DNA of 64,000 bases. Source: a phage. This document shows, piece by piece, positions 2,633 to 32,898 of the stretch (position 1 is the stretch's first letter; every line of letters begins with the position of its first letter). The translations under genes were made by a program, and so were the position numbers. The notes below the pieces were generated by a model, which made no database searches, was not told the DNA's origin, and saw nothing but the letters and a program-made list of their open reading frames with translations. The stretch lies in the NCBI GenBank assembly GCA_024572335.1, contig GCA_024572335.1_3052.1; one strand, written 5' to 3'.

Positions 2633-3055
2633 TTAGTCTTCTATGATATCTCTATCATATCCAAGTGAAATGAGAGTTTCTTTGAAGTGTTTAATGTTCT
2701 TTTGTCTAGAATCATTAATGAAAATGACTGGATAACGAATGTTAAGAGATGTGAATCCAGCGCGTTTAGCAAGAGATACAATCAGCGGACGATCATACTC
2801 AATCTTACCGTTATTTGTAAGAACTTTATAGAAAGTAAAAGGAGCATTAAGCTCCTTTAGAAGTTTTGTAACTGATTGACATCCAGGACAACGACCTACT
2901 TCTTCGGGGATGCCATAGATTTCAATCTTATTCTTTAAATTCGAGTTTTGTTCCACGAGAAATAATTCCTTGATAAGCCCAGTATGGCGGGTTAACAGAA
3001 TCCTCACCAGAGTTTTCTTCAGGAAAATAAACCTGGATAACGAAGCCGGATTCAT
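2633..3055 (-). CDS. glutaredoxin/NrdH-like redoxin (CPGC active site); start uncertain
   Basis: CPGCQ CxxC motif within IEIYGIPEEVGRCPGCQ...; the domain has no internal Met and its frame overlaps the upstream ORF; only ATG is at 3053-3055 with no SD. Confidence 0.45.
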   Translation of the reverse strand: MNPASLSRFIFLKKTLVRILLTRHTGLIKELFLVEQNSNLKNKIEIYGIPEEVGRCPGCQSVTKLLKELNAPFTFYKVLTNNGKIEYDRPLIVSLAKRAGFTSLNIRYPVIFINDSRQKNIKHFKETLISLGYDRDIIED

Positions 3056-4043: not shown

Positions 4044-5857
4044 TGGTGCTTAACCCTATGCATGATTTCTTTATTTTTGCCGAGATTAAATCCGCGTTCG
4101 TTCGGATTTCCAAGATAGCCGCATGTTCTTCTTATTGTGTTCATCTTTTTAGGATCAGTTTCTCCACAGATAGAACAAACAAATCCGTTTTCAGTAGGAG
4201 TCATTTCATGGGTGCTTCCGCATGTAAAACATTTATCTACTGGCATATTAACACCAAAATAATCTAAATGTTGTGCAGCATAATCCCATACAGCCTCAAG
4301 GCCTTTTAGGTTATTTTTCATATCAGGAAGTTCAACATAAGAAATGTGACCACCTGTCGCAATGAAATGATATGGCGCTTCACGAGAAATCTTTTCAAAC
4401 GGAGTAATATTTTCTTCTACTGAAACATGGAAACTGTTAGTGTACCATCCTTTATCGGTAACATCTTTTACACTTCCATATTTTTCTGTATCAAGTTTAC
4501 AGAAGCGATAACAAAGGTTTTCAGCAGGAGTCGAATACAAACTAAAAGCAAACCCAGTTCTTTCAGCCCACTGTTTAAGACGAGCATTCATTTTAGTTAA
4601 AATTTCTTGTCCAATGTCACGACCGACAAGAATATTCAATTCATGAATACCAATGTATCCTAAAGACACTGAACTTCTACCGTTTTTAAATAACTCAATT
4701 ATGTCGTCATCAGGTTTAAGACGAACCCCGAATGCACCTTCTTGGTAAAGAATAGGAGCAACAGTAGCTTTAACTCCTTTTAAGGAACTAATTCTACACA
4801 TCAAAGCTTCAAAACACAAATCCATACGTTCATTGAATAATTCAACAAATTTCTGTTCATTGAACTGTGTTCCAATATAAGAATCCAACGCGATGCGAGG
4901 AAGATTCAGTGTTACAACACCAAGATTATTACGTCCATCAAGAATTTCATTACCAGTCGAATCTTTCCATACGCTCAAGAAACTACGGCAACCCATTGGA
5001 GAAACAGGAATAGATGAACCGGTGATAGCTTTATTATTCTTAACTGAAATAATATCAGGATACATCCTTTTGCTTGCACACTCTAGAGCAAGCTGCTTAA
5101 TATCATAGTTCGGATCGTCTTTATAAAGATTAACGCCTTCTTCAACGAACATAACAAGTTTAGGAAAAATAGGAGTTATCCCATCACGACCAAGACCTTT
5201 AATACGATTTTTCAGAATTGCTTTCTGAATCATTCGTTCAGTCCAGTCAGTTCCCGTACCAAATGTAATTGTTACAAAGGGAGTCTGTCCGTTTGAACTA
5301 AAGAGAGTATTTACTTCATATTCATAAGCTTGGAATGCATCGTATACGTCTTTTTCTGTTTTAGATTGGGCATAATTCAGTGCATCGGCGATTTGCCATT
5401 TTTCTGCGTCCTCGATATGTTTTGCATAGGTGCGTTTAACATAAGGAGAAAGTACTTTATCTACATTCGCAAAAGTCGTTCCGCCGTATTGGTGAGAAGC
5501 AACCTGTGCGGTAATTTGTGCCATAATTGCAGTAGCAACGCCAATTGATTTAGGAGTTTCAATCTGTGCATTACCAAGCTTAAATCCGTTTTCAAGCATT
5601 CCTTTTAAATCTACTAAACAACAATTAGTAAATGGAAGAGCAGGGGAATAATCAATATCATGGAAATGAATAATTCCGCTTTCATGCGCTTTCATAATAA
5701 AAGACGGGACCATATTTTTGGCAATGTGTTTAGACACAATACCAGCCATAAGGTCCCGTTGAGTTGGAAAAACACGAGAATCTTTATTAGCATTCTCGTT
5801 TAAAAGGTCTTTATTAGTTTTATGAATCAATCCTTCAATTTCTTTTTCAATTGTCAT
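4040..5857 (-). CDS. nrdD: anaerobic ribonucleoside-triphosphate reductase (class III, glycyl radical); uninterrupted
   Basis: 605-aa continuous ORF; C-terminal zinc-ribbon CxxC...CxxC and glycyl-radical region; nrdD-nrdG-49 synteny. Confidence 0.93.
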   Translation of the reverse strand: MTIEKEIEGLIHKTNKDLLNENANKDSRVFPTQRDLMAGIVSKHIAKNMVPSFIMKAHESGIIHFHDIDYSPALPFTNCCLVDLKGMLENGFKLGNAQIETPKSIGVATAIMAQITAQVASHQYGGTTFANVDKVLSPYVKRTYAKHIEDAEKWQIADALNYAQSKTEKDVYDAFQAYEYEVNTLFSSNGQTPFVTITFGTGTDWTERMIQKAILKNRIKGLGRDGITPIFPKLVMFVEEGVNLYKDDPNYDIKQLALECASKRMYPDIISVKNNKAITGSSIPVSPMGCRSFLSVWKDSTGNEILDGRNNLGVVTLNLPRIALDSYIGTQFNEQKFVELFNERMDLCFEALMCRISSLKGVKATVAPILYQEGAFGVRLKPDDDIIELFKNGRSSVSLGYIGIHELNILVGRDIGQEILTKMNARLKQWAERTGFAFSLYSTPAENLCYRFCKLDTEKYGSVKDVTDKGWYTNSFHVSVEENITPFEKISREAPYHFIATGGHISYVELPDMKNNLKGLEAVWDYAAQHLDYFGVNMPVDKCFTCGSTHEMTPTENGFVCSICGETDPKKMNTIRRTCGYLGNPNERGFNLGKNKEIMHRVKHQ

Positions 5858-10147: not shown

Positions 10148-10178
10148 AATAATAATCTCCTCAGTAGAAAGTAAGAAC

Positions 10179-10208
10179 ATTATACCACATCCTTGTGGCA
10201 ATGTAAAC
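10179..10208 (-). promoter_or_regulatory. early promoter
   Basis: GTTTAC (10203-10208) - 18 bp - TATAAT (10179-10184) on minus strand. Confidence 0.55.
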
Positions 10209-11227
10209 TAGTTCAGTGCATTTAGTGCATTGTTCAGTTTAGAACGTTGCTTCGTAAGATTTTTGACTTTTTCTTGAGCTTTTTCCAACATCTTTTCAGC
10301 TTCTAGCACTTCATTAGTTGCTTTAACGAGTTCATCATCTACTGCCTTAAGGGACTTCTCAATCGCATCCGCGTGCCATTTTTCAACAGGTTTAAGACTC
10401 GGATTTTCAATAGGAAGAAAATTCACTTTATTGAATTTCCATGCATCTTTATTACCTGAACTATACATCCAAAATTTAGGATCATTTGACGAGTAATTAG
10501 ATAAATTTAAGGTATCTTGTACTTCCTGCTTTTTCTCTTGTGTAACTTCGTCCTTTCTCAAAAAATCGTATTTAAATGAAACGATCATATCAAGTTCATA
10601 TGTTGTTGTGTCTAATTTAAATCGTTCGAAATGCTGTGAAATCTTAGACTGAACTGCAGCAACAACATCCATATACTTAAATGCTTCTGTCAGCTGTGAT
10701 TTAAGGCATTCACAAATTGAAAGAGAATTTTTTGTATTAGGTTTAAAGCTAATTCGTGCAGTTCTATTATTTTCTTTTAATGGTCTTACTTCCATCTGAA
10801 GAGTATAACCATCAAATTTCAGATTCTTTAAGTTAATATCAGAGCCTTTTAATCGACTAGCCGTCGACAAAATTTGCTTTAATTGTTTACGGAATAGAGC
10901 AATAAATCTCCACTCAAGACGATAATGATTTGGATTAAAAAATCCAGATGATAAATCGACCTTACTCTGACCAACACCTTGAACAAACAGAGGATTTTTA
11001 TAATCAATAGTTTTACAGAAATCGGTGAGCTGCTCACGAGCAGTCATTTGTGTAATATACCCCGCTTTACTAAAATGACGTAACCATTCACTGCTATTCA
11101 TATATTTAAAGTGAATATCACGATTAACTTTATCAGGGTCTAAATTATTTTGGCACAAAAATGTCATAACATCACGAGTATAGCTGGCATTACGAACCAT
11201 ATCTTCAATTTGAGAACGAGTTTTCAT
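10208..11227 (-). CDS. hypothetical protein with C-terminal coiled coil (339 aa)
   Basis: N-terminus MKTRSQ...; tail ...EKMLEKAQEKVKNLTKQRSKLNNALNALN. Confidence 0.55.
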   Translation of the reverse strand: MKTRSQIEDMVRNASYTRDVMTFLCQNNLDPDKVNRDIHFKYMNSSEWLRHFSKAGYITQMTAREQLTDFCKTIDYKNPLFVQGVGQSKVDLSSGFFNPNHYRLEWRFIALFRKQLKQILSTASRLKGSDINLKNLKFDGYTLQMEVRPLKENNRTARISFKPNTKNSLSICECLKSQLTEAFKYMDVVAAVQSKISQHFERFKLDTTTYELDMIVSFKYDFLRKDEVTQEKKQEVQDTLNLSNYSSNDPKFWMYSSGNKDAWKFNKVNFLPIENPSLKPVEKWHADAIEKSLKAVDDELVKATNEVLEAEKMLEKAQEKVKNLTKQRSKLNNALNALN

Positions 11228-13122: not shown

Positions 13123-13149
13123 TTTTGTTCCTCCGTAGTTGATAGTTGC

Positions 13150-13179
13150 ATAGTACCACAGAGGAACGGTCTTGTAAAC
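13150..13179 (-). promoter_or_regulatory. early promoter
   Basis: GTTTAC (13174-13179) - 18 bp - TACTAT (13150-13155). Confidence 0.55.
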
Positions 13180-13181
13180 AA

Positions 13182-13496
13182 CTAAAAGAAACTTCTTTCA
13201 CAATTTTTTCCACTGAACCAAGCGCTCACTGCTTTCTTAGTCTCAGGAGCAGTGTTATCCATAAACCATTCAAAGGCAGCCTTTTTATGATTCTGGAGGG
13301 CTTCTCGGGCTTTAATCTGCTCACGGTCTATTAACACTAACATATGAGCCTTTCTTGTCACCAAAGGCTTCTTATGATTTTTTGAATACTCCCAATCATT
13401 TGTCCAACGCATTGTCGTTGCGAACTGATGAACCGCGTCTTTAATTTTAGTTTCATAAATTTCACGAGCTTTTGAGTATAACATCTTTACCTCCAT
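13182..13496 (-). CDS. hypothetical protein (104 aa)
   Basis: ORF. Confidence 0.45.
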   Translation of the reverse strand: MEVKMLYSKAREIYETKIKDAVHQFATTMRWTNDWEYSKNHKKPLVTRKAHMLVLIDREQIKAREALQNHKKAAFEWFMDNTAPETKKAVSAWFSGKNCERSFF

Positions 13497-14588: not shown

Positions 14589-14618
14589 ATAGTACCATAA
14601 AGCTTTATGCTTGTAAAC
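14589..14618 (-). promoter_or_regulatory. early promoter
   Basis: GTTTAC (14613-14618) - 18 bp - TACTAT (14589-14594); AAAGCTTT palindrome in spacer. Confidence 0.55.
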
Positions 14619-22341: not shown

Positions 22342-22368
22342 GTTATTCTCCTCTTAACTGATAGAAAA

Positions 22369-22398
22369 ATTATACCACAGTCAAGAGGAAAAGTAAAC
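22369..22398 (-). promoter_or_regulatory. early promoter upstream of regB
   Basis: GTTTAC (22393-22398) - 18 bp - TATAAT (22369-22374). Confidence 0.6.
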
Positions 22399-22400
22399 AG

Positions 22401-22679
22401 TTATTCTTTAAATCTAATCAATTTATTCATAGACTTTGAAACTTCTGCACGAACCTCATGTAAGTTTTTAAGCTGTTCAAGACGCTGCTCATAGTAAGCA
22501 ATTTCATCTTCTTCGAGACAGTCCTGTGAATCTTCTTTAAGATAACGTGCATAGTCCTGAAAAGCTTTACGGACTACTTCCTGAAAGTCATCAAGACTTT
22601 GAATTTTCTTAGGAGCGGCAGATACACGACGAGGTGCAGTATAATACTCATAACCAAACCCTGCACTTAATTGAGCCAT
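22401..22679 (-). CDS. hypothetical helical protein (92 aa from MAQLSAG)
   Basis: probable start at internal ATG abutting upstream ORF stop. Confidence 0.4.
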
Positions 22680-25009: not shown

Positions 25010-25063
25010 GGGTTTCCTTTAAATATTTTAATTAGTAATTTGTCTCTTCAAGCAACTGTGAAT

Positions 25064-25093
25064 ATACTATCACAATTCTAGGAGAAAGTAAAC
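25064..25093 (-). promoter_or_regulatory. early promoter upstream of the IP-like gene
   Basis: GTTTAC (25088-25093) - 18 bp - TAGTAT (25064-25069). Confidence 0.5.
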
Positions 25094-27903: not shown

Positions 27904-28497
27904 TTATTTCAGAGAATTAATATATTCCTGAACATCGGCAGAGGTAGTTTCAACCCCAGAAATATTGCCATTAAAGGTTTCAACTCGGGCAAGAGTATCT
28001 TCAATATCAACCTTAGTCAGCGCTGCAATTTCAACTACATCATCAGCAGTACTAATTCCGAGGGCATTCGCGGCGCGAGTTTCACGGATATATTCCAATT
28101 TAACTGCAAGTTCTTGGCGAGCATCATCTAACTCAACTACTTTCTTGGCGATTTCAATTCGCATTTCAGCATAACCATCAGCTTTAGTAGTCAACTGCTC
28201 AGCTGTTCGACGATATAGTAAACCAAGTTTAGCATGCATTGTTACATCTTGACCTTCCGAAAGAAGCTTGCGAATTTCACGCTCTTTTGATTCGGCCTGC
28301 TTATTCTTTTCGACAATAAGTTCACGAATACGCTTTTCTTCATTAATAGATTTAACAGAAGCAGTTTTTAGATCTTTAATCTTATCAAGTAGTTTTGCTG
28401 CTGCAGCAGTATACTGTTCTTCAACAGATAGATTTTTAGCCATAGCAGAACCAAGTTTAGTGCGAATAAACTCAACAATTTTCTTCAGTGTGTTCAT
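27904..28497 (-). CDS. coiled-coil protein, possibly PspA/IM30-like
   Basis: 197 aa, predicted all-helical; weak resemblance to PspA ([37 protein letters not shown]); early promoter 28542-28571. Confidence 0.35.
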
Positions 28498-28541
28498 AGC
28501 ATTTCCTTTAGTTAATTAAGGGTTTTATAATCCGTGGGAGT

Positions 28542-28571
28542 ATTATACTCTACTCCCAAGAGTTTGTAAAC
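28542..28571 (-). promoter_or_regulatory. early promoter with -10 embedded in an inverted repeat
   Basis: GTTTAC (28566-28571) - 18 bp - TATAAT (28542-28547); inverted repeat gggagta/tactccc at 28536-28557. Confidence 0.55.
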
Positions 28572-28904
28572 TTATTCTTCGTCCAATTCATCAATAAATT
28601 TATCGATACTACTATTAATAGACTCATCGATGATTAACAAAGCATCATCATCTATAATATTAATATTTTCTAAAGCATCAATATAAGCTTGATTGACTAT
28701 AGACCATGCCCTTTGAAAATATGGGGTTTCATCATCAGGACTGAACCAACGTACACCTTCAAAGATACGTTTAGCATAATCCAACACCCATTGTACAGGC
28801 ATGTTTTGAGAGCGTTCATTAAACTCTTCAAAGTCCTTAGATTCAAAAAGCTCTTCAGGATAATAATTTCTATTACAAAAAGCTTTACTAAAGTTACGTT
28901 TCAT
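28572..28904 (-). CDS. hypothetical acidic protein (110 aa)
   Basis: ORF with GAGGAGAA SD; early promoter 28931-28960. Confidence 0.45.
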   Translation of the reverse strand: MKRNFSKAFCNRNYYPEELFESKDFEEFNERSQNMPVQWVLDYAKRIFEGVRWFSPDDETPYFQRAWSIVNQAYIDALENINIIDDDALLIIDESINSSIDKFIDELDEE

Positions 28905-28930
28905 AATGTTCTCCTCAAAGTTATAGGCTC

Positions 28931-28960
28931 ATAATATCTCAATCATGAGCCTGTGTAAAC
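28931..28960 (-). promoter_or_regulatory. early promoter with -10 embedded in an inverted repeat
   Basis: GTTTAC (28955-28960) - 18 bp - TATTAT (28931-28936); inverted repeat aggctcat/atgagcct at 28925-28952. Confidence 0.55.
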
Positions 28961-29224
28961 TTATTTCATATTATTGAAATATTCTTCAGCAATTTCATCA
29001 TTATCATGATAAACTTTAGAAGACAGTTTAACATAACTTTCAGCAGTGAACATGTTAATCACAACCTTTACAGTATACCACTGACCATCTTCATTACCCA
29101 TTACTGCGTAAGTTTCAAACAACGGATGATCAGGACCGATAACTTTAATATCATTCACTGTACGACCGAAATCTTCTGAAACACATTTCATAAAGAAGTT
29201 GAACAGTTCGCCGTAATTATCCAT
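28961..29224 (-). CDS. hypothetical protein (87 aa)
   Basis: ATG 29222-29224 (complement) after GGAGAA SD; ORF-track start at 29287 would lie inside promoter 29268-29297. Confidence 0.45.
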   Translation of the reverse strand: MDNYGELFNFFMKCVSEDFGRTVNDIKVIGPDHPLFETYAVMGNEDGQWYTVKVVINMFTAESYVKLSSKVYHDNDEIAEEYFNNMK

Positions 29225-29297: not shown

Positions 29298-29440
29298 CGT
29301 TTTGTGAAAAAATTTTTAAAAAGTTTTGGGGAATTCTAGGGCAGGGAGGGGAAATCAAAGGATAGGATAATATATTATAAAGGGTAGAAACTAAATGATG
29401 TCTAGAGAGGCCTGGAAAGGCCTAGATACCAAAAAGCCCC

Positions 29441-29467
29441 AACCTTTCGGCTAGGGCTAAGAATGTT
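29441..29467 (-). terminator. intrinsic terminator, copy B of a duplicated 31-bp element
   Basis: minus-strand GCCCUAGCC-GAAA-GGUUGGGGC + UUUUU; one substitution relative to 29986-30012. Confidence 0.65.
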
Positions 29468-29939
29468 ATTTGATTTGTTTAGCAGACCAAATGCGGTCTT
29501 TAATAATTTTTTGGATGTCTTCAACATACTCAAGAGAGTGAGCATGTGGGTTATCTTTGAAACTATAAGCACGAGCTAACTTTTGACCTTCAGTTTTGAT
29601 TACTAAAAGCTCTTTAAGGATAGCTTCATATTTGGAGATAATTCCTTTAACAATATTTTTCTCTTGTGCGACTTTAGGATCTGCTTTAGGAGCAGGTTTA
29701 CCCGAAGCCTTTGCAAAAGCAGCGCCAGTAGCAACTAAACTTTTCCAGGCCATACTAACTGCATTTCCCGTAAATCCTTCTGCTTTCATGTCGCGAGCAA
29801 ATTGGAATCGTGATTCATCAGAAGCATCTTTATAGGAATATTTACCCGCTGCAATGGCTGCTTTTGCGACAGCTTGAATTTCGGTGCTAGACGCTTCATT
29901 TAACACCGCTTCATTTAAAAATTGAGTATATGATTTCAT
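29466..29939 (-). CDS. candidate packaged internal protein with variant capsid targeting sequence
   Basis: N-terminus MKSYTQFLNE|A (variant of MKTYQEFIAE); own TATAAATA late promoter 29976-29983 and AGGAAA SD; flanked by duplicated terminators. Confidence 0.6.
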   Translation of the reverse strand: MKSYTQFLNEAVLNEASSTEIQAVAKAAIAAGKYSYKDASDESRFQFARDMKAEGFTGNAVSMAWKSLVATGAAFAKASGKPAPKADPKVAQEKNIVKGIISKYEAILKELLVIKTEGQKLARAYSFKDNPHAHSLEYVEDIQKIIKDRIWSAKQIK

Positions 29940-29985: not shown

Positions 29986-30012
29986 AAAAAGCCCCAACCT
30001 TTCGGCTGGGGC
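29986..30012 (-). terminator. intrinsic terminator, copy A, ending the tRNA/stable-RNA transcription unit
   Basis: minus-strand GCCCCAGCC-GAAA-GGUUGGGGC + UUUUU. Confidence 0.65.
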
Positions 30013-30018
30013 TAAGCC

Positions 30019-30693: not shown

Positions 30694-30770
<77 letters not shown>

Positions 30771-30777
30771 TATTTTG

Positions 30778-30849
30778 CGGACGTGATAGGATTCGAACCT
30801 ATAACCAATCGCTTAACAGGCGATCGCTCTGCCATTGAGCTACACATCC
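30778..30849 (-). tRNA. tRNA-Asn (anticodon GUU)
   Basis: acceptor GGATGTG/CACGTCC, anticodon arm ATCGC-CTGTTAA-GCGAT, T-loop TTCGAAT; no encoded CCA. Confidence 0.75.
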
Positions 30850-30853
30850 AAAT

Positions 30854-30940
30854 TGGTGGGGAGTGGTGGAGTCGAACCACCCGAGTCGCAATGACAATGA
30901 ATTTACAGTCCACACCGCTACCTCTACGGGATAACTCCCC
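30854..30940 (-). tRNA. tRNA-Tyr (anticodon GUA), class II with long variable arm
   Basis: acceptor GGGGAGT/ACTCCCC, anticodon loop CTGTAAA (as in E. coli tRNA-Tyr), T-arm GGTGG-TTCGACT-CCACC, CCA; D-arm atypical. Confidence 0.6.
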
Positions 30941-30949
30941 AAATTAATT

Positions 30950-31024
30950 TGGTGGCCCTGGGTGGAATTGAACCACCATCTGGCGATTATGAGTCGCTTG
31001 CTTGAACCTTCCAGCTACAGGGCC
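30950..31024 (-). tRNA. tRNA-Ile (anticodon CAU, probably lysidine-modified, AUA-reading)
   Basis: acceptor GGCCCTG/CAGGGCC, anticodon stem-loop GCGACTCATAATCGC resembling E. coli ileX, CCA encoded. Confidence 0.75.
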
Positions 31025-31025
31025 T

Positions 31026-31101
31026 TGGTGCTGATTAACGGAATCGAACCGCCGACCTTCTCATTACAAGTGAGTTGCTCTACCTACTGAGCTAAATCAG
31101 C
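31026..31101 (-). tRNA. tRNA-Thr (anticodon UGU)
   Basis: acceptor GCTGATT/AATCAGC, anticodon loop CTTGTAA, T-loop TTCGATT, CCA. Confidence 0.8.
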
Positions 31102-31106
31102 AAAAC

Positions 31107-31196
31107 TGGCGGAGGCGATAGGATTTGAACCTATGAGTCGCCGGAGCGACTGCCGGTTTTCAAGACCGGTGCATTAAACCACTCTGCCACGCCTCC
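31107..31196 (-). tRNA. tRNA-Ser (anticodon UGA), long variable arm
   Basis: acceptor GGAGGCG/CGCCTCC, anticodon arm CCGGT-CTTGAAA-ACCGG, T-loop TTCAAAT, CCA. Confidence 0.8.
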
Positions 31197-31198
31197 AG

Positions 31199-31273
31199 TC
31201 TCCATACAAGGATTTGAACCTTGGACCTCCTGATCCCAAATCAGGCGCTCTACCAAACTGAGCTACACGGAGT
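31199..31273 (-). tRNA. tRNA-Pro (anticodon UGG)
   Basis: anticodon arm CCTGA-TTTGGGA-TCAGG, T-arm CAAGG-TTCAAAT-CCTTG; 2 nt from tRNA-Ser; no encoded CCA. Confidence 0.75.
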
Positions 31274-31282
31274 AAATTAAAT

Positions 31283-31356
<74 letters not shown>

Positions 31357-31361
31357 AAATT

Positions 31362-31448
31362 TGGTGCGAGAAGTGGGACTCGAACCCACAAGGAAATCAT
31401 TCCGCAGCATTTTAAGTGCTGTGCCTTTACCAATTTGACCATTCTCGC
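31362..31448 (-). tRNA. tRNA-Leu (anticodon UAA), long variable arm
   Basis: acceptor GCGAGAA/TTCTCGC, anticodon arm CAGCA-CTTAAAA-TGCTG, T-loop TTCGAGT, CCA. Confidence 0.8.
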
Positions 31449-31449
31449 G

Positions 31450-31522
31450 CTGGGAATAAAGGACTCGAACCTTTGCATCCTGGAATCAAAATCCAGTGCC
31501 TTACCAACTTGGCTAATTCCCA
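31450..31522 (-). tRNA. tRNA-Gln (anticodon UUG)
   Basis: acceptor TGGGAAT/ATTCCCA, anticodon arm CTGGA-TTTTGAT-TCCAG, T-loop TTCGAGT; 1 nt from tRNA-Leu. Confidence 0.8.
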
Positions 31523-32477: not shown

Positions 32478-32505
32478 TTTATTCTCCTCAGTAGTTGATA
32501 GGGTA

Positions 32506-32535
32506 ATAGTATCACAACTAAAACCCTATGTAAAC
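32506..32535 (-). promoter_or_regulatory. early promoter
   Basis: GTTTAC (32530-32535) - 18 bp - TACTAT (32506-32511). Confidence 0.55.
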
Positions 32536-32553: not shown

Positions 32554-32838
32554 TTACAAAAGATTTTTAGCAATAATTTTAAGCTGAGCTACTGAAATAT
32601 GCTTGGCTTTAAACAAAGCAGTTTCTTCAGCAGGGGAGATAACGATTGTAGCACCATCTTTCTTAGCGGACCATCCATCACCCAGGTAAACAGTACCTTT
32701 GACTTCTTCGCCATCAACCAGGCTAATCATCGGTTTACCTTCACGTCCTTTGTTTGCTTTAATAACTTCAGAAGTAAGGGTCGCTTCAGTCAAAGTAGAA
32801 GCGTTAGTGGTTGAAGTGAATTCTTGATAAGTTTTCAT
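32554..32838 (-). CDS. internal-protein-like head protein with capsid targeting sequence (ipI-locus position)
   Basis: N-terminus MKTYQEF...LTE|A; gene sits upstream of 57B as T4 ipI does; early promoter 32869-32898. Confidence 0.65.
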   Translation of the reverse strand: MKTYQEFTSTTNASTLTEATLTSEVIKANKGREGKPMISLVDGEEVKGTVYLGDGWSAKKDGATIVISPAEETALFKAKHISVAQLKIIAKNLL

Positions 32839-32868
32839 TTTATTTTCCTAATTAATTTTGATGAGGTA

Positions 32869-32898
32869 ATAGTATCACTACCTCATCAGCATGTAAAC
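32869..32898 (-). promoter_or_regulatory. early promoter of the ipI-locus gene, -10 in the loop of a 9-bp inverted repeat
   Basis: GTTTAC (32893-32898) - 18 bp - TACTAT (32869-32874); arms gatgaggta (32860-32868) / tacctcatc (32879-32887). Confidence 0.55.

Follow-up and report, generated by a model that had tools for sequence, protein, structure and literature searches.

Stem-loops of the PeSL type over T4-type early promoters of a Tequatrovirus

In this study, we show that early promoters of a T4-like phage carry stem-loops at their -10 elements, and that these hairpin promoters are real, non-random and evolutionarily maintained. Five such sites, S1 to S5, are described in a stretch of 64,000 nucleotides of phage DNA (the window). 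Moreover, the way in which the arms vary among relatives indicates that the hairpin structure is selected as RNA, in transcripts that read through from the upstream gene. We interpret S1 to S5 as T-even promoter-early stem-loops (PeSLs), in which a hairpin lacking a U-tract would serve as an attenuator and as a protective 3' hairpin at the boundary of the upstream cistron, and we place the probability of this statement as a whole at about 0.6. The narrower proposition, that S1 to S5 are elements of the PeSL type whose helix belongs to the RNA level and is specific to read-through, is very likely correct.

The promoter/stem-loop class, its -10-overlapping subclass and its presence in T-even phages are already in the literature (Arbiol 2010, PMC2839356; Comeau 2014, PMC4122927). 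The novelty is therefore low, and S1 to S5 reveal no new kind of element. Evidence from covariation or wobble asymmetry, a demonstration that the ribosome-binding site (RBS) is not masked, and the possible general rule for the promoter spacer were not found in the available portions of PMC2839356 and PMC4122927. The present comparison adds evidence for selection on the T-even stems at the level of sense-strand RNA, and shows that they are without U-tracts and are predicted not to mask the next RBS; the remaining question is thereby narrowed to the means by which a transcript boundary could be set by a hairpin that has no U-tract.

Position and anatomy of the hairpin promoters

The window belongs to a Tequatrovirus (T4-like) genome whose early genes lie on the minus strand. 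Its closest match is phage FelixPlatter (96% identity), and the gene and intergenic names used below come from comparison with the annotated FelixPlatter and T4 records. The pattern GTTTAC-N16-19-TAnnAT (N18 in the promoters discussed here) has 16 matches in the window against 1.4 expected, and 14 of the 16 are on the minus strand. The initial annotation had reported inverted repeats at three promoters, our S1 to S3; all three are present where it placed them, are perfect, measure 8-10 bp and fall each in a GTTTAC-N18-TAnnAT match. S4 and S5 are two hairpin promoters beyond those three. All five hairpins, their promoters and the genes named with coordinates below are on the minus strand.

S1 (28535-28558) lies in the e.7/e.6 intergenic region and has an 8 bp stem, TGGGAGTA / TACTCCCA, around an 8-nt loop, gagTATAA; the 7-bp core described earlier (28536-28557) lies inside this stem. 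With the arms in square brackets, the minus-strand reading is GTTTAC-aaactct[TGGGAGTA]gagTATAA[TACTCCCA]. The early promoter concerned (28542-28571; -35 GTTTAC at 28566-28571, -10 TATAAT at 28542-28547) serves the e.6 homologue (27904-28497), and its -35 is abutted by the e.7 stop codon at 28572-28574 (gap 0 nt). S2 (28925-28952), between an e.8-like gene and e.7, also has an 8 bp stem, AGGCTCAT / ATGAGCCT, with a loop of 12 nt, and reads GTTTAC-ac[AGGCTCAT]gattgagaTATT[ATGAGCCT], its -10, TATTAT, lying partly within the 3' arm. At the corresponding e.7 early promoter (28931-28960; -35 at 28955-28960, -10 at 28931-28936) the -35 again follows immediately on a stop codon, that of the upstream ORF (28961-28963; gap 0 nt). 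The e.7 homologue itself (28572-28904), a gene missing in some relatives, thus has S2 upstream and S1 downstream.

S3 (32859-32888), in the 57B/ipI intergenic region, has the 10 bp stem TGATGAGGTA / TACCTCATCA and a 10-nt loop, gtgaTACTAT, which holds the whole -10; the reading is GTTTAC-atgc[TGATGAGGTA]gtgaTACTAT[TACCTCATCA]. The ipI early promoter (32869-32898; -35 at 32893-32898, -10 TACTAT at 32869-32874) is preceded by a conserved upstream element, TTTCACAAAGTT, and the upstream stop lies 15 nt before its -35. S4 (32498-32529), between ipI and trna.4, pairs ATAGGGT with ACCCTAT across an 18-nt loop that contains an inner 4-bp helix, and surrounds the -10 (32506-32511) of the trna.4 promoter (32506-32535). 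S5 (25054-25077), at the e/ipIII position, has the stem AATTGTGA / TCACAGTT (8 bp including one U.G pair) and surrounds the -10 (25064-25069) of a promoter at 25064-25093, with the stop of gene e 4 nt before. The homologue of ipI (internal head protein I; 32554-32838), a polymorphic gene, has S3 on one side and S4 on the other, and S5 sits at the second internal-protein (IP) locus. S3 and S4 have aaaataatttcacaaagtt; the sequence upstream of S1 and S2 is the coding end of the previous gene.

At S1 to S3 the 5' arm lies within the promoter spacer, and the 3' arm extends over the last part of the -10 and over the discriminator. Over all hairpin promoters, the left arm begins between -30 and -16, within the spacer; the end of the right arm falls between -1 and +7, where the upper limit depends in part on the search window. 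Loops measure 6-18 nt, and both their length and the position of the stem with respect to the -10 differ from site to site. Against the sigma-70 consensus the S1 promoter scores 11/12 and the S2 promoter 10/12. Predicted RNA folds reach -14.1 kcal/mol for S1 (z -2.5), -16.8 for S2 (z -4.6), -17.4 for S3 (z -4.1) and -16.9 for S4 (z -3.2); the fold of S5 is weak (-10.6 kcal/mol, z -1.5), and a control promoter gave z +1.2.

The elements are tightly packed. Hairpin promoters have the upstream stop 0-18 nt before the -35 and an ATG at +21 to +49, with a Shine-Dalgarno (SD) sequence, and the intergenic gaps that contain them measure 56-88 nt in total. Promoters with a gap of at least 38 nt (-35 at 14618 and 18205; nrdC.10 and mobD.5 of T4) have a canonical tetraloop terminator with a T-run upstream and no hairpin at the -10. 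This complementary distribution of terminators and -10 hairpins according to the gap suggests that the embedded hairpin does the job of the terminator hairpin where room is lacking. With intrinsic terminators S1 to S5 share a stable stem-loop right after a gene, but differ from them in having no U-tract: 0 of 18 hairpin promoters had 5 or more T in the 8-nt tail. A terminator scan of the window called none of S1 to S5 and found tetraloop terminators with T-runs at 29990-30013 and 29435-29458. In Rfam, at the gathering threshold, the window matched 9 tRNAs only, with no family at the hairpins.

Enrichment, conservation and covariation of the stems

At the 14 minus-strand promoters, perfect stems across the -10 reach at most 10, 8, 8 and 7 bp in four cases and 5 bp or less in the others. 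Stems of at least 7 bp over the -10 are present at 4 of the 14, against 0.28-0.37 expected under two shuffle nulls, namely shuffling within promoters and swapping of downstream halves between promoters (P ≤ 5e-4), and stems of at least 8 bp at 3 of the 14, against 0.07 expected; binomial comparison with random genomic 38-mers gave P values of 6e-4 and 1.4e-4. The definition of stem and loop behind these figures was set after the examples were known; the independent replication and the covariation are free of that choice. For the replication, 71 T4-type promoters were taken from related contigs after dereplication, with no promoter identical to one of the window; 17 of them had a stem of 7 bp or more (expected 2.07; at most 6 in the null) and 11 a stem of 8 bp or more (expected 0.43). 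It follows from the former count that about a quarter of T4-type early promoters share the design; about three quarters are without such a hairpin. A scan for TTCACAAARNNGTTTAC returned mostly chance matches, T4-like loci alone being useful.

Of the T4 counterparts, those of S3 and S4 agree with the window in every base, and that of S2 does so but for a single unresolved position (N) in the T4 record; S5 forms a perfect 8 bp stem in T4, and S1 is represented there by a weak AT stem of only 6 bp, which one relative has in broken form. A G.U variant of S3 occurs in FelixPlatter, and relatives have 9-11 bp versions of S4, TAGATAGGGTA/TACCCTATCTA. The metagenome scan with the e.6 alignment yielded at least 10 loci. 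Among e.6 homologues (IMG/VR, metagenomes) the stem stands at a constant place with the arms GGGAGTA/TACTCCC, GAGAGCA/TGCTCTC, GAGGACA/TGTCCTC or GGGAACAT/ATGTTCCC, and a contig whose e.6 is only 49% identical carries a 13-bp stem. Moreover, the cassette TTTAC-aaactctt-STEM-gagTATAAT-STEM'-nGGAT(T/A)ATAAA is dispersed in RB69-like contigs, where this S1-type cassette precedes at least three unrelated genes and its copies display further stems, GGGAGCA/TGCTCC(C/T) and GGGACCA/TGGTCC(C/T). The initial annotation had made its reading depend on conservation of the palindromes in relatives; there the stems are kept with compensatory changes, and the finding survives.

In an ungapped alignment of 13 sequences of the e.6 cassette family (the orthologous promoter and dispersed paralogues), 94.2% of cells are paired, against 40-46% when the 3' partners are slid. 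Double-sided changes occur in 4 of the 8 pairs (17 cells), and the covariation score was reached by 0 of 500 shuffles. The orthologues of S2 are less variable; 94.4% of their cells are paired against 24-46% when slid, with 2 compensatory pairs, and 8 of 500 shuffles reached the score. That the stems have no function, being chance palindromes or hitch-hikers of a repeated promoter cassette, is very improbable in the light of these data. S5 and the T4 allele of S1 are indeed weak cases, and repeated cassettes could copy one origin many times. However, the stems are enriched against three nulls and in the independent set, copies of the same cassette carry different yet complementary arms, and the design is found also in the distant genus Krischvirus as well as in the 13-bp stem beside the 49%-identical e.6.

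The selection acts on sense-strand RNA, because the arms covary and because their mispairs are mostly G.U and not A.C. Among hairpin promoters with one transition-type mispair, the mispair is G.U on the sense strand in 20 unique sequences and A.C in 3, which corresponds to roughly 9-10 versus 1-2 independent events. Selection on RNA of the sense strand predicts such an asymmetry, which neither a DNA cruciform nor an antisense RNA would produce. The promoter's own transcript cannot form the helix, since it would start at the 3' edge of the right arm. The initial annotation had suggested that the hairpin may act on RNA of the upstream gene while its DNA doubles as a promoter; as far as computation goes, the covariation, the G.U bias and the position of the start all support that suggestion, which agrees with the interpretation published for PeSLs. 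The variable register and loop length, in turn, make a precise contact with RNA polymerase at the promoter unlikely.

A second suggestion made at that stage, a protein operator, has fared badly, and it is extremely improbable that these are dyad-symmetric operators at which a phage or host DNA-binding protein represses the early promoter. The dyad is centred on the -10, and the mechanism of early-promoter shut-off is incompletely understood (PMC3014915), both of which would suit an operator. However, the arms differ at every site and change compensatorily among orthologues, with no conserved half-site, neither the register with respect to the -10 nor the size of the loop is constant, and most early promoters are without a dyad.

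It is also quite improbable that the repeats act as DNA, either as a cruciform or DNA hairpin that promotes recombination (PeSL shuffling, with endonuclease VII as the enzyme whose target it would be) or by tuning promoter melting. Three facts speak for such a role: PeSLs have been tied to indels and mini-circle formation in the literature, five relatives lack the e.7 gene between their S2 and S1 cassettes, and ipI is flanked by S3 and S4. Against it, G.T mispairs on the sense strand are tolerated, and these would be A.C on the other strand. Stems of 7-10 bp with loops of 6-18 nt form cruciforms poorly, and recombination requires homology of the cassettes and not a stem, while homology in its turn requires no compensatory changes. 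No clean PeSL-by-PeSL recombination junction could be seen at the e.7 deletion, where the sequences rather suggest microhomology combined with another small deletion.

The early hairpin promoters of phage N4 are DNA structures read by the virion RNA polymerase. The sites in the window have in common with them an inverted repeat inside the promoter, but the polymerase and the level of action differ. A promoter of the N4 type was considered for the window and rejected; the promoter here is of the standard sigma-70 type and the signature of selection is on the RNA.

Relation to PeSLs of RB49 and the T-even phages

The PeSL was defined in phages RB49 and phi1 as the succession of an upstream stop, an AT-rich stretch, an early promoter, a stem-loop, an SD and an ATG (Arbiol 2010, PMC2839356). 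Five positional subclasses were distinguished, a stem-loop 'overlapping the -10 box' being among the two commonest, and the stem-loops were inferred to be terminators or attenuators of upstream transcription (PMC2839356). Measurements of promoter, terminator/attenuator and mini-circle activity exist only for selected RB49/phi1 elements; one RB49 stem-loop reduced lacZ expression in a plasmid reporter as rrnB T1 did (PMC2839356). The assayed stem-loop is that of PeSL211/210, which on inspection of its sequence is also without a U-tract; it is GC-richer than the hairpins described here, and it is the only one with a functional assay.

The window elements display every sequence-level feature of PeSLs that could be tested here: a sigma-70 promoter with its hexamers 17-18 nt apart, a stable stem-loop at the -10, an intergenic position between stop and SD/ATG, and dispersal as repeats in plastic regions. 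With the RB49/phi1 PeSLs they share the order of stop codon, early promoter, stem-loop, SD and ATG, the lack of a U-tract, the repetition and the association with variable small ORFs. Inspection of the RB49 sequences shows that the stem-loop encloses the -10 in PeSLs 226/225, 205/204, 227/226, 228/227, 199/198 and 186/185, and the stem of 226/225, GGGAGTA/TACTCCC around the -10, is the same as that of S1. The two groups differ in the -35, which is TTGACA in the RB49 PeSLs and GTTTAC in the window, and in the stems, which are often poly-G/poly-C in RB49 and of mixed composition in the T-evens.

PeSL-like elements with T4 early promoters and weaker, AT-rich stem-loops have been described at T-even internal-protein loci (Repoila 1994, according to PMC2839356), and S3, S4 and S5 lie at exactly those loci. 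PeSLs were later extended to T4 and PST, with the promoter consensus TTTACW-N17-TAYWAT and variable stems of the form 'AGNA-loop-TCNT' (Comeau 2014, PMC4122927). The phage studied here belongs to the same group, its promoters match the consensus and the stem of S1, ..AGTA/TACT.., fits the AGNA-loop-TCNT type; the PST stem-loops are placed 'just upstream of the promoter' in the legend of PMC4122927, whereas here the stems enclose the -10. The idea behind PeSL-type cassettes is that each small early gene, having its own promoter and boundary, becomes autonomous and swappable; this has been proposed to drive the shuffling of genes in T4-like phages, among other places at the anti-restriction internal-protein loci.

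A possible role in read-through RNA

We propose that at each of S1 to S5 a strong sigma-70 early promoter of the downstream gene is overlapped by a stem-loop of 7-13 bp whose helix would fold only in RNA reading through from the upstream gene. In such RNA the hairpin would mark the 3' boundary of the upstream cistron and would act as an attenuator of incoming transcription that lacks a U-tract. An RNA ending at the hairpin, or trimmed back to it after a RegB or RNase E cut near the next SD, would keep an exonuclease-resistant 3' hairpin. Its place inside the promoter is probably owed to lack of room, with the stop abutting the -35 and no more than 56-88 nt in the whole intergenic gap. The cassettes would then be repeated, self-contained promoter/boundary units and hence also sites of gene swapping between phages.

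Both attenuation and 3' protection are deduced here from sequence comparison and precedent. Attenuation is preferred since it has the only experimental precedent and since the hairpins and canonical terminators are distributed in a complementary manner, and the chance that it is the main effect of the hairpin is a little below even. Efficient intrinsic termination needs a U-tract, and it is not to be expected at S1 to S5, from which the U-tract is missing; this is the chief argument against efficient termination. Delayed-early expression in T4 depends on read-through, and strong termination at every cassette would therefore be surprising. One might speculate that the -10 presented in the loop makes the incoming polymerase pause in a sigma-70-dependent manner, and that pause and hairpin in combination could stand in for the U-tract. 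No mapping of T4 transcription start sites or 3' ends usable for the hairpins was found in the literature.

Alternatively, the hairpin may be a pure 3' stabiliser with no effect on RNA polymerase, which would block RNase II, PNPase and RNase R after a RegB or RNase E cut near the next SD and thereby uncouple the stability of the upstream cistron from the inactivated downstream cistron. We consider this, the main rival reading, unlikely. The lack of U-tracts speaks for it and the sense-RNA signature fits it equally well. RegB is known to cut GGAG/U in early intergenic regions, producing new 3' ends that admit exonucleases (PMC3014915), and a GGAG or GGAU motif is present 10-25 nt past the S1, S2 and S4 stems (GAGGAG at S2 and S4, GGAUUAUAAA at S1). 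However, S3 is followed by AGGAAA only, with neither GGAG nor GGAU, and a pure stabiliser leaves the reduction of lacZ by the RB49 stem-loop unexplained. A reading of the conserved GGAUUAUAAA after S1 as an RNase E 'RAUUW' site was considered and dropped as a claim.

A third possibility at the RNA level concerns the downstream gene. The late promoters of T4 e, soc, 49 and I-TevI lie inside hairpins that mask the RBS. At those genes, as at S1 to S5, the promoter lies within a helix and only the longer RNA initiated upstream folds; they differ in that their 3' arm is the RBS itself, while S1 to S5 are predicted to leave the RBS untouched. This form of translational control in T4, with the promoter inside the hairpin, is also covered by a review (PMC3014915, section 29). 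By analogy, the hairpins of the window might insulate translation, or the RegB target, by masking the downstream RBS in read-through RNA in the style of e, soc and 49, or else by keeping it open. Predicted SD accessibility at S1 to S5 in read-through RNA is equal to or higher than that in promoter-proximal RNA, and thus no masking is seen. The SDs of S2 to S4 are predicted to be more accessible than those of shuffled promoter cores (0.62-0.86 against 0.33-0.60), which would suit the second version, but the effect is modest, with a fraction of 0.81-1.00 of shuffles at or below the observed value, and is absent for S1 and S5. An insulating role for S1 to S5 is thus improbable even though three other early promoters of the window, discussed below, are predicted to mask the SD in read-through RNA only. 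The preferred reading, attenuation with 3' protection, places the action of the hairpin at the end of the upstream cistron.

In the window, 8 early promoters have their -35 at a distance of 0-18 nt from the preceding stop codon, and all 8 have a predicted helix that involves the spacer. In 5 of them the spacer pairs with the -10 and discriminator, forming a local hairpin that leaves the next RBS open, and in the other three, the promoters of regB, nrdC.8 and nrdC.4, it pairs with the downstream SD. It is conceivable, though rather doubtful, that the spacer of tightly packed T4-type early promoters is systematically the 5' arm of a helix confined to read-through RNA, and that the transcript in this way 'knows' its promoter of origin. 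If this is true, the spacer-SD pairing at regB, nrdC.8 and nrdC.4 would silence translation and shield the SD from RegB.

As a separate observation, the promoters of regB, nrdC.8 and nrdC.4 are predicted to have the SD masked in read-through RNA only, which at most 2% of shuffles do as well, and by computation these early promoters resemble the design of T4 e, soc and 49.

Promoter position and folding of the read-through RNA

In this analysis, we found that the position of an early promoter relative to the upstream stop codon goes together with the structure predicted for the RNA that enters from the upstream gene. In the predicted folds of the window, the spacer forms the 5' arm of a helix specific to read-through RNA at all eight (8/8) minus-strand early promoters whose -35 element lies 0-18 nt past the upstream stop. 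These stop-adjacent promoters comprise five hairpins around the -10 element (S1-S5) and three helices in which the spacer pairs with a Shine-Dalgarno (SD) sequence. Neither type of structure was found at the two minus-strand early promoters of the window with a gap of at least 38 nt (-35 at 14618 and 18205), and a canonical terminator is located upstream of each.

The spacer:SD helices belong to the early promoters of regB (22350-22405), nrdC.8 (13130-13185) and nrdC.4 (10160-10210), all on the minus strand, where RNA folding predicts that the downstream SD pairs with the promoter spacer. At regB, the predicted helix is formed by CCTCTTGACTG and CAGTTAAGAGG (-16.2 kcal/mol, z -4.4). The predicted probability that the SD of these three genes is unpaired is 0.00-0.03 in read-through RNA versus 0.38-0.44 in promoter-started RNA, and equal masking occurred in no more than 2% of shuffled promoter cores; SD pairing is predicted to be limited to read-through RNA. 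The three helices resemble the hairpins at the late promoters of T4 genes e, soc and 49. RNA structure also shields GGAG from RegB.

Repeated promoter cassettes

A conserved TTTCACAAA(G/A)(T/C)(T/G) element adjoins the -35 on its upstream side (-35 at 32898, 32535, 29297, 14618 and 2534), and the initial transcribed sequence ACAACTATCAACTAC is conserved after TACTAT at several window promoters, which together indicate that the promoters are repeated cassettes. Directly 3' of the S1-type hairpin (S1 lies between e.7 and e.6), a GGAT(T/A)ATAAA motif is conserved where RNA initiated at this promoter is predicted to begin (28520-28534, minus strand), and it is also present in the S1-type cassettes of relatives L008-L061. 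Its GGAU is also a RegB-type motif. Some relatives carry the variants TATAAATC or TATAAATT, near matches to the T4 late-promoter box TATAAATA.

Cassettes in related phages

In L028, a distant T4-like contig whose e.6 homolog has only 49% identity, a GTTTAC promoter has a perfect 13-bp stem (TTTGCGCAGATGT/ACATCTGCGCAAA; 2860-2905, plus strand) around its -10 region. Five relatives (L005, L006, L021, L023 and L024) lack e.7 in the region upstream of e.6, approximately 110 nt before its start; next to the S2 promoter-hairpin (upstream of e.7 in the window), on its downstream side, lies a degraded S1 whose -35 and left arm have been lost. A gene has disappeared here from between two cassettes, and in its sequence the junction resembles microhomology more than a clean exchange of one cassette for another. 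In the T4 reference record (NC_000866, e.8/e.7 intergenic region, ~4330-4345), the S2 left arm contains an ambiguous base (aggctNatg).

Terminators and tRNA genes

The terminator scan gave two canonical minus-strand terminators (29990-30013 and 29435-29458) of near-identical sequence, AGCCC(C/T)AGCCGAAAGGTTGGGGCT followed by TTTT, flanking an ORF at 29466-29939; the two may be copies of one boundary on either side of an ORF that was inserted. Nine tRNA genes are clustered at 30697-31522 (minus strand) between the e.x genes and trna.2-4, the same position as the tRNA cluster of T4 relatives.
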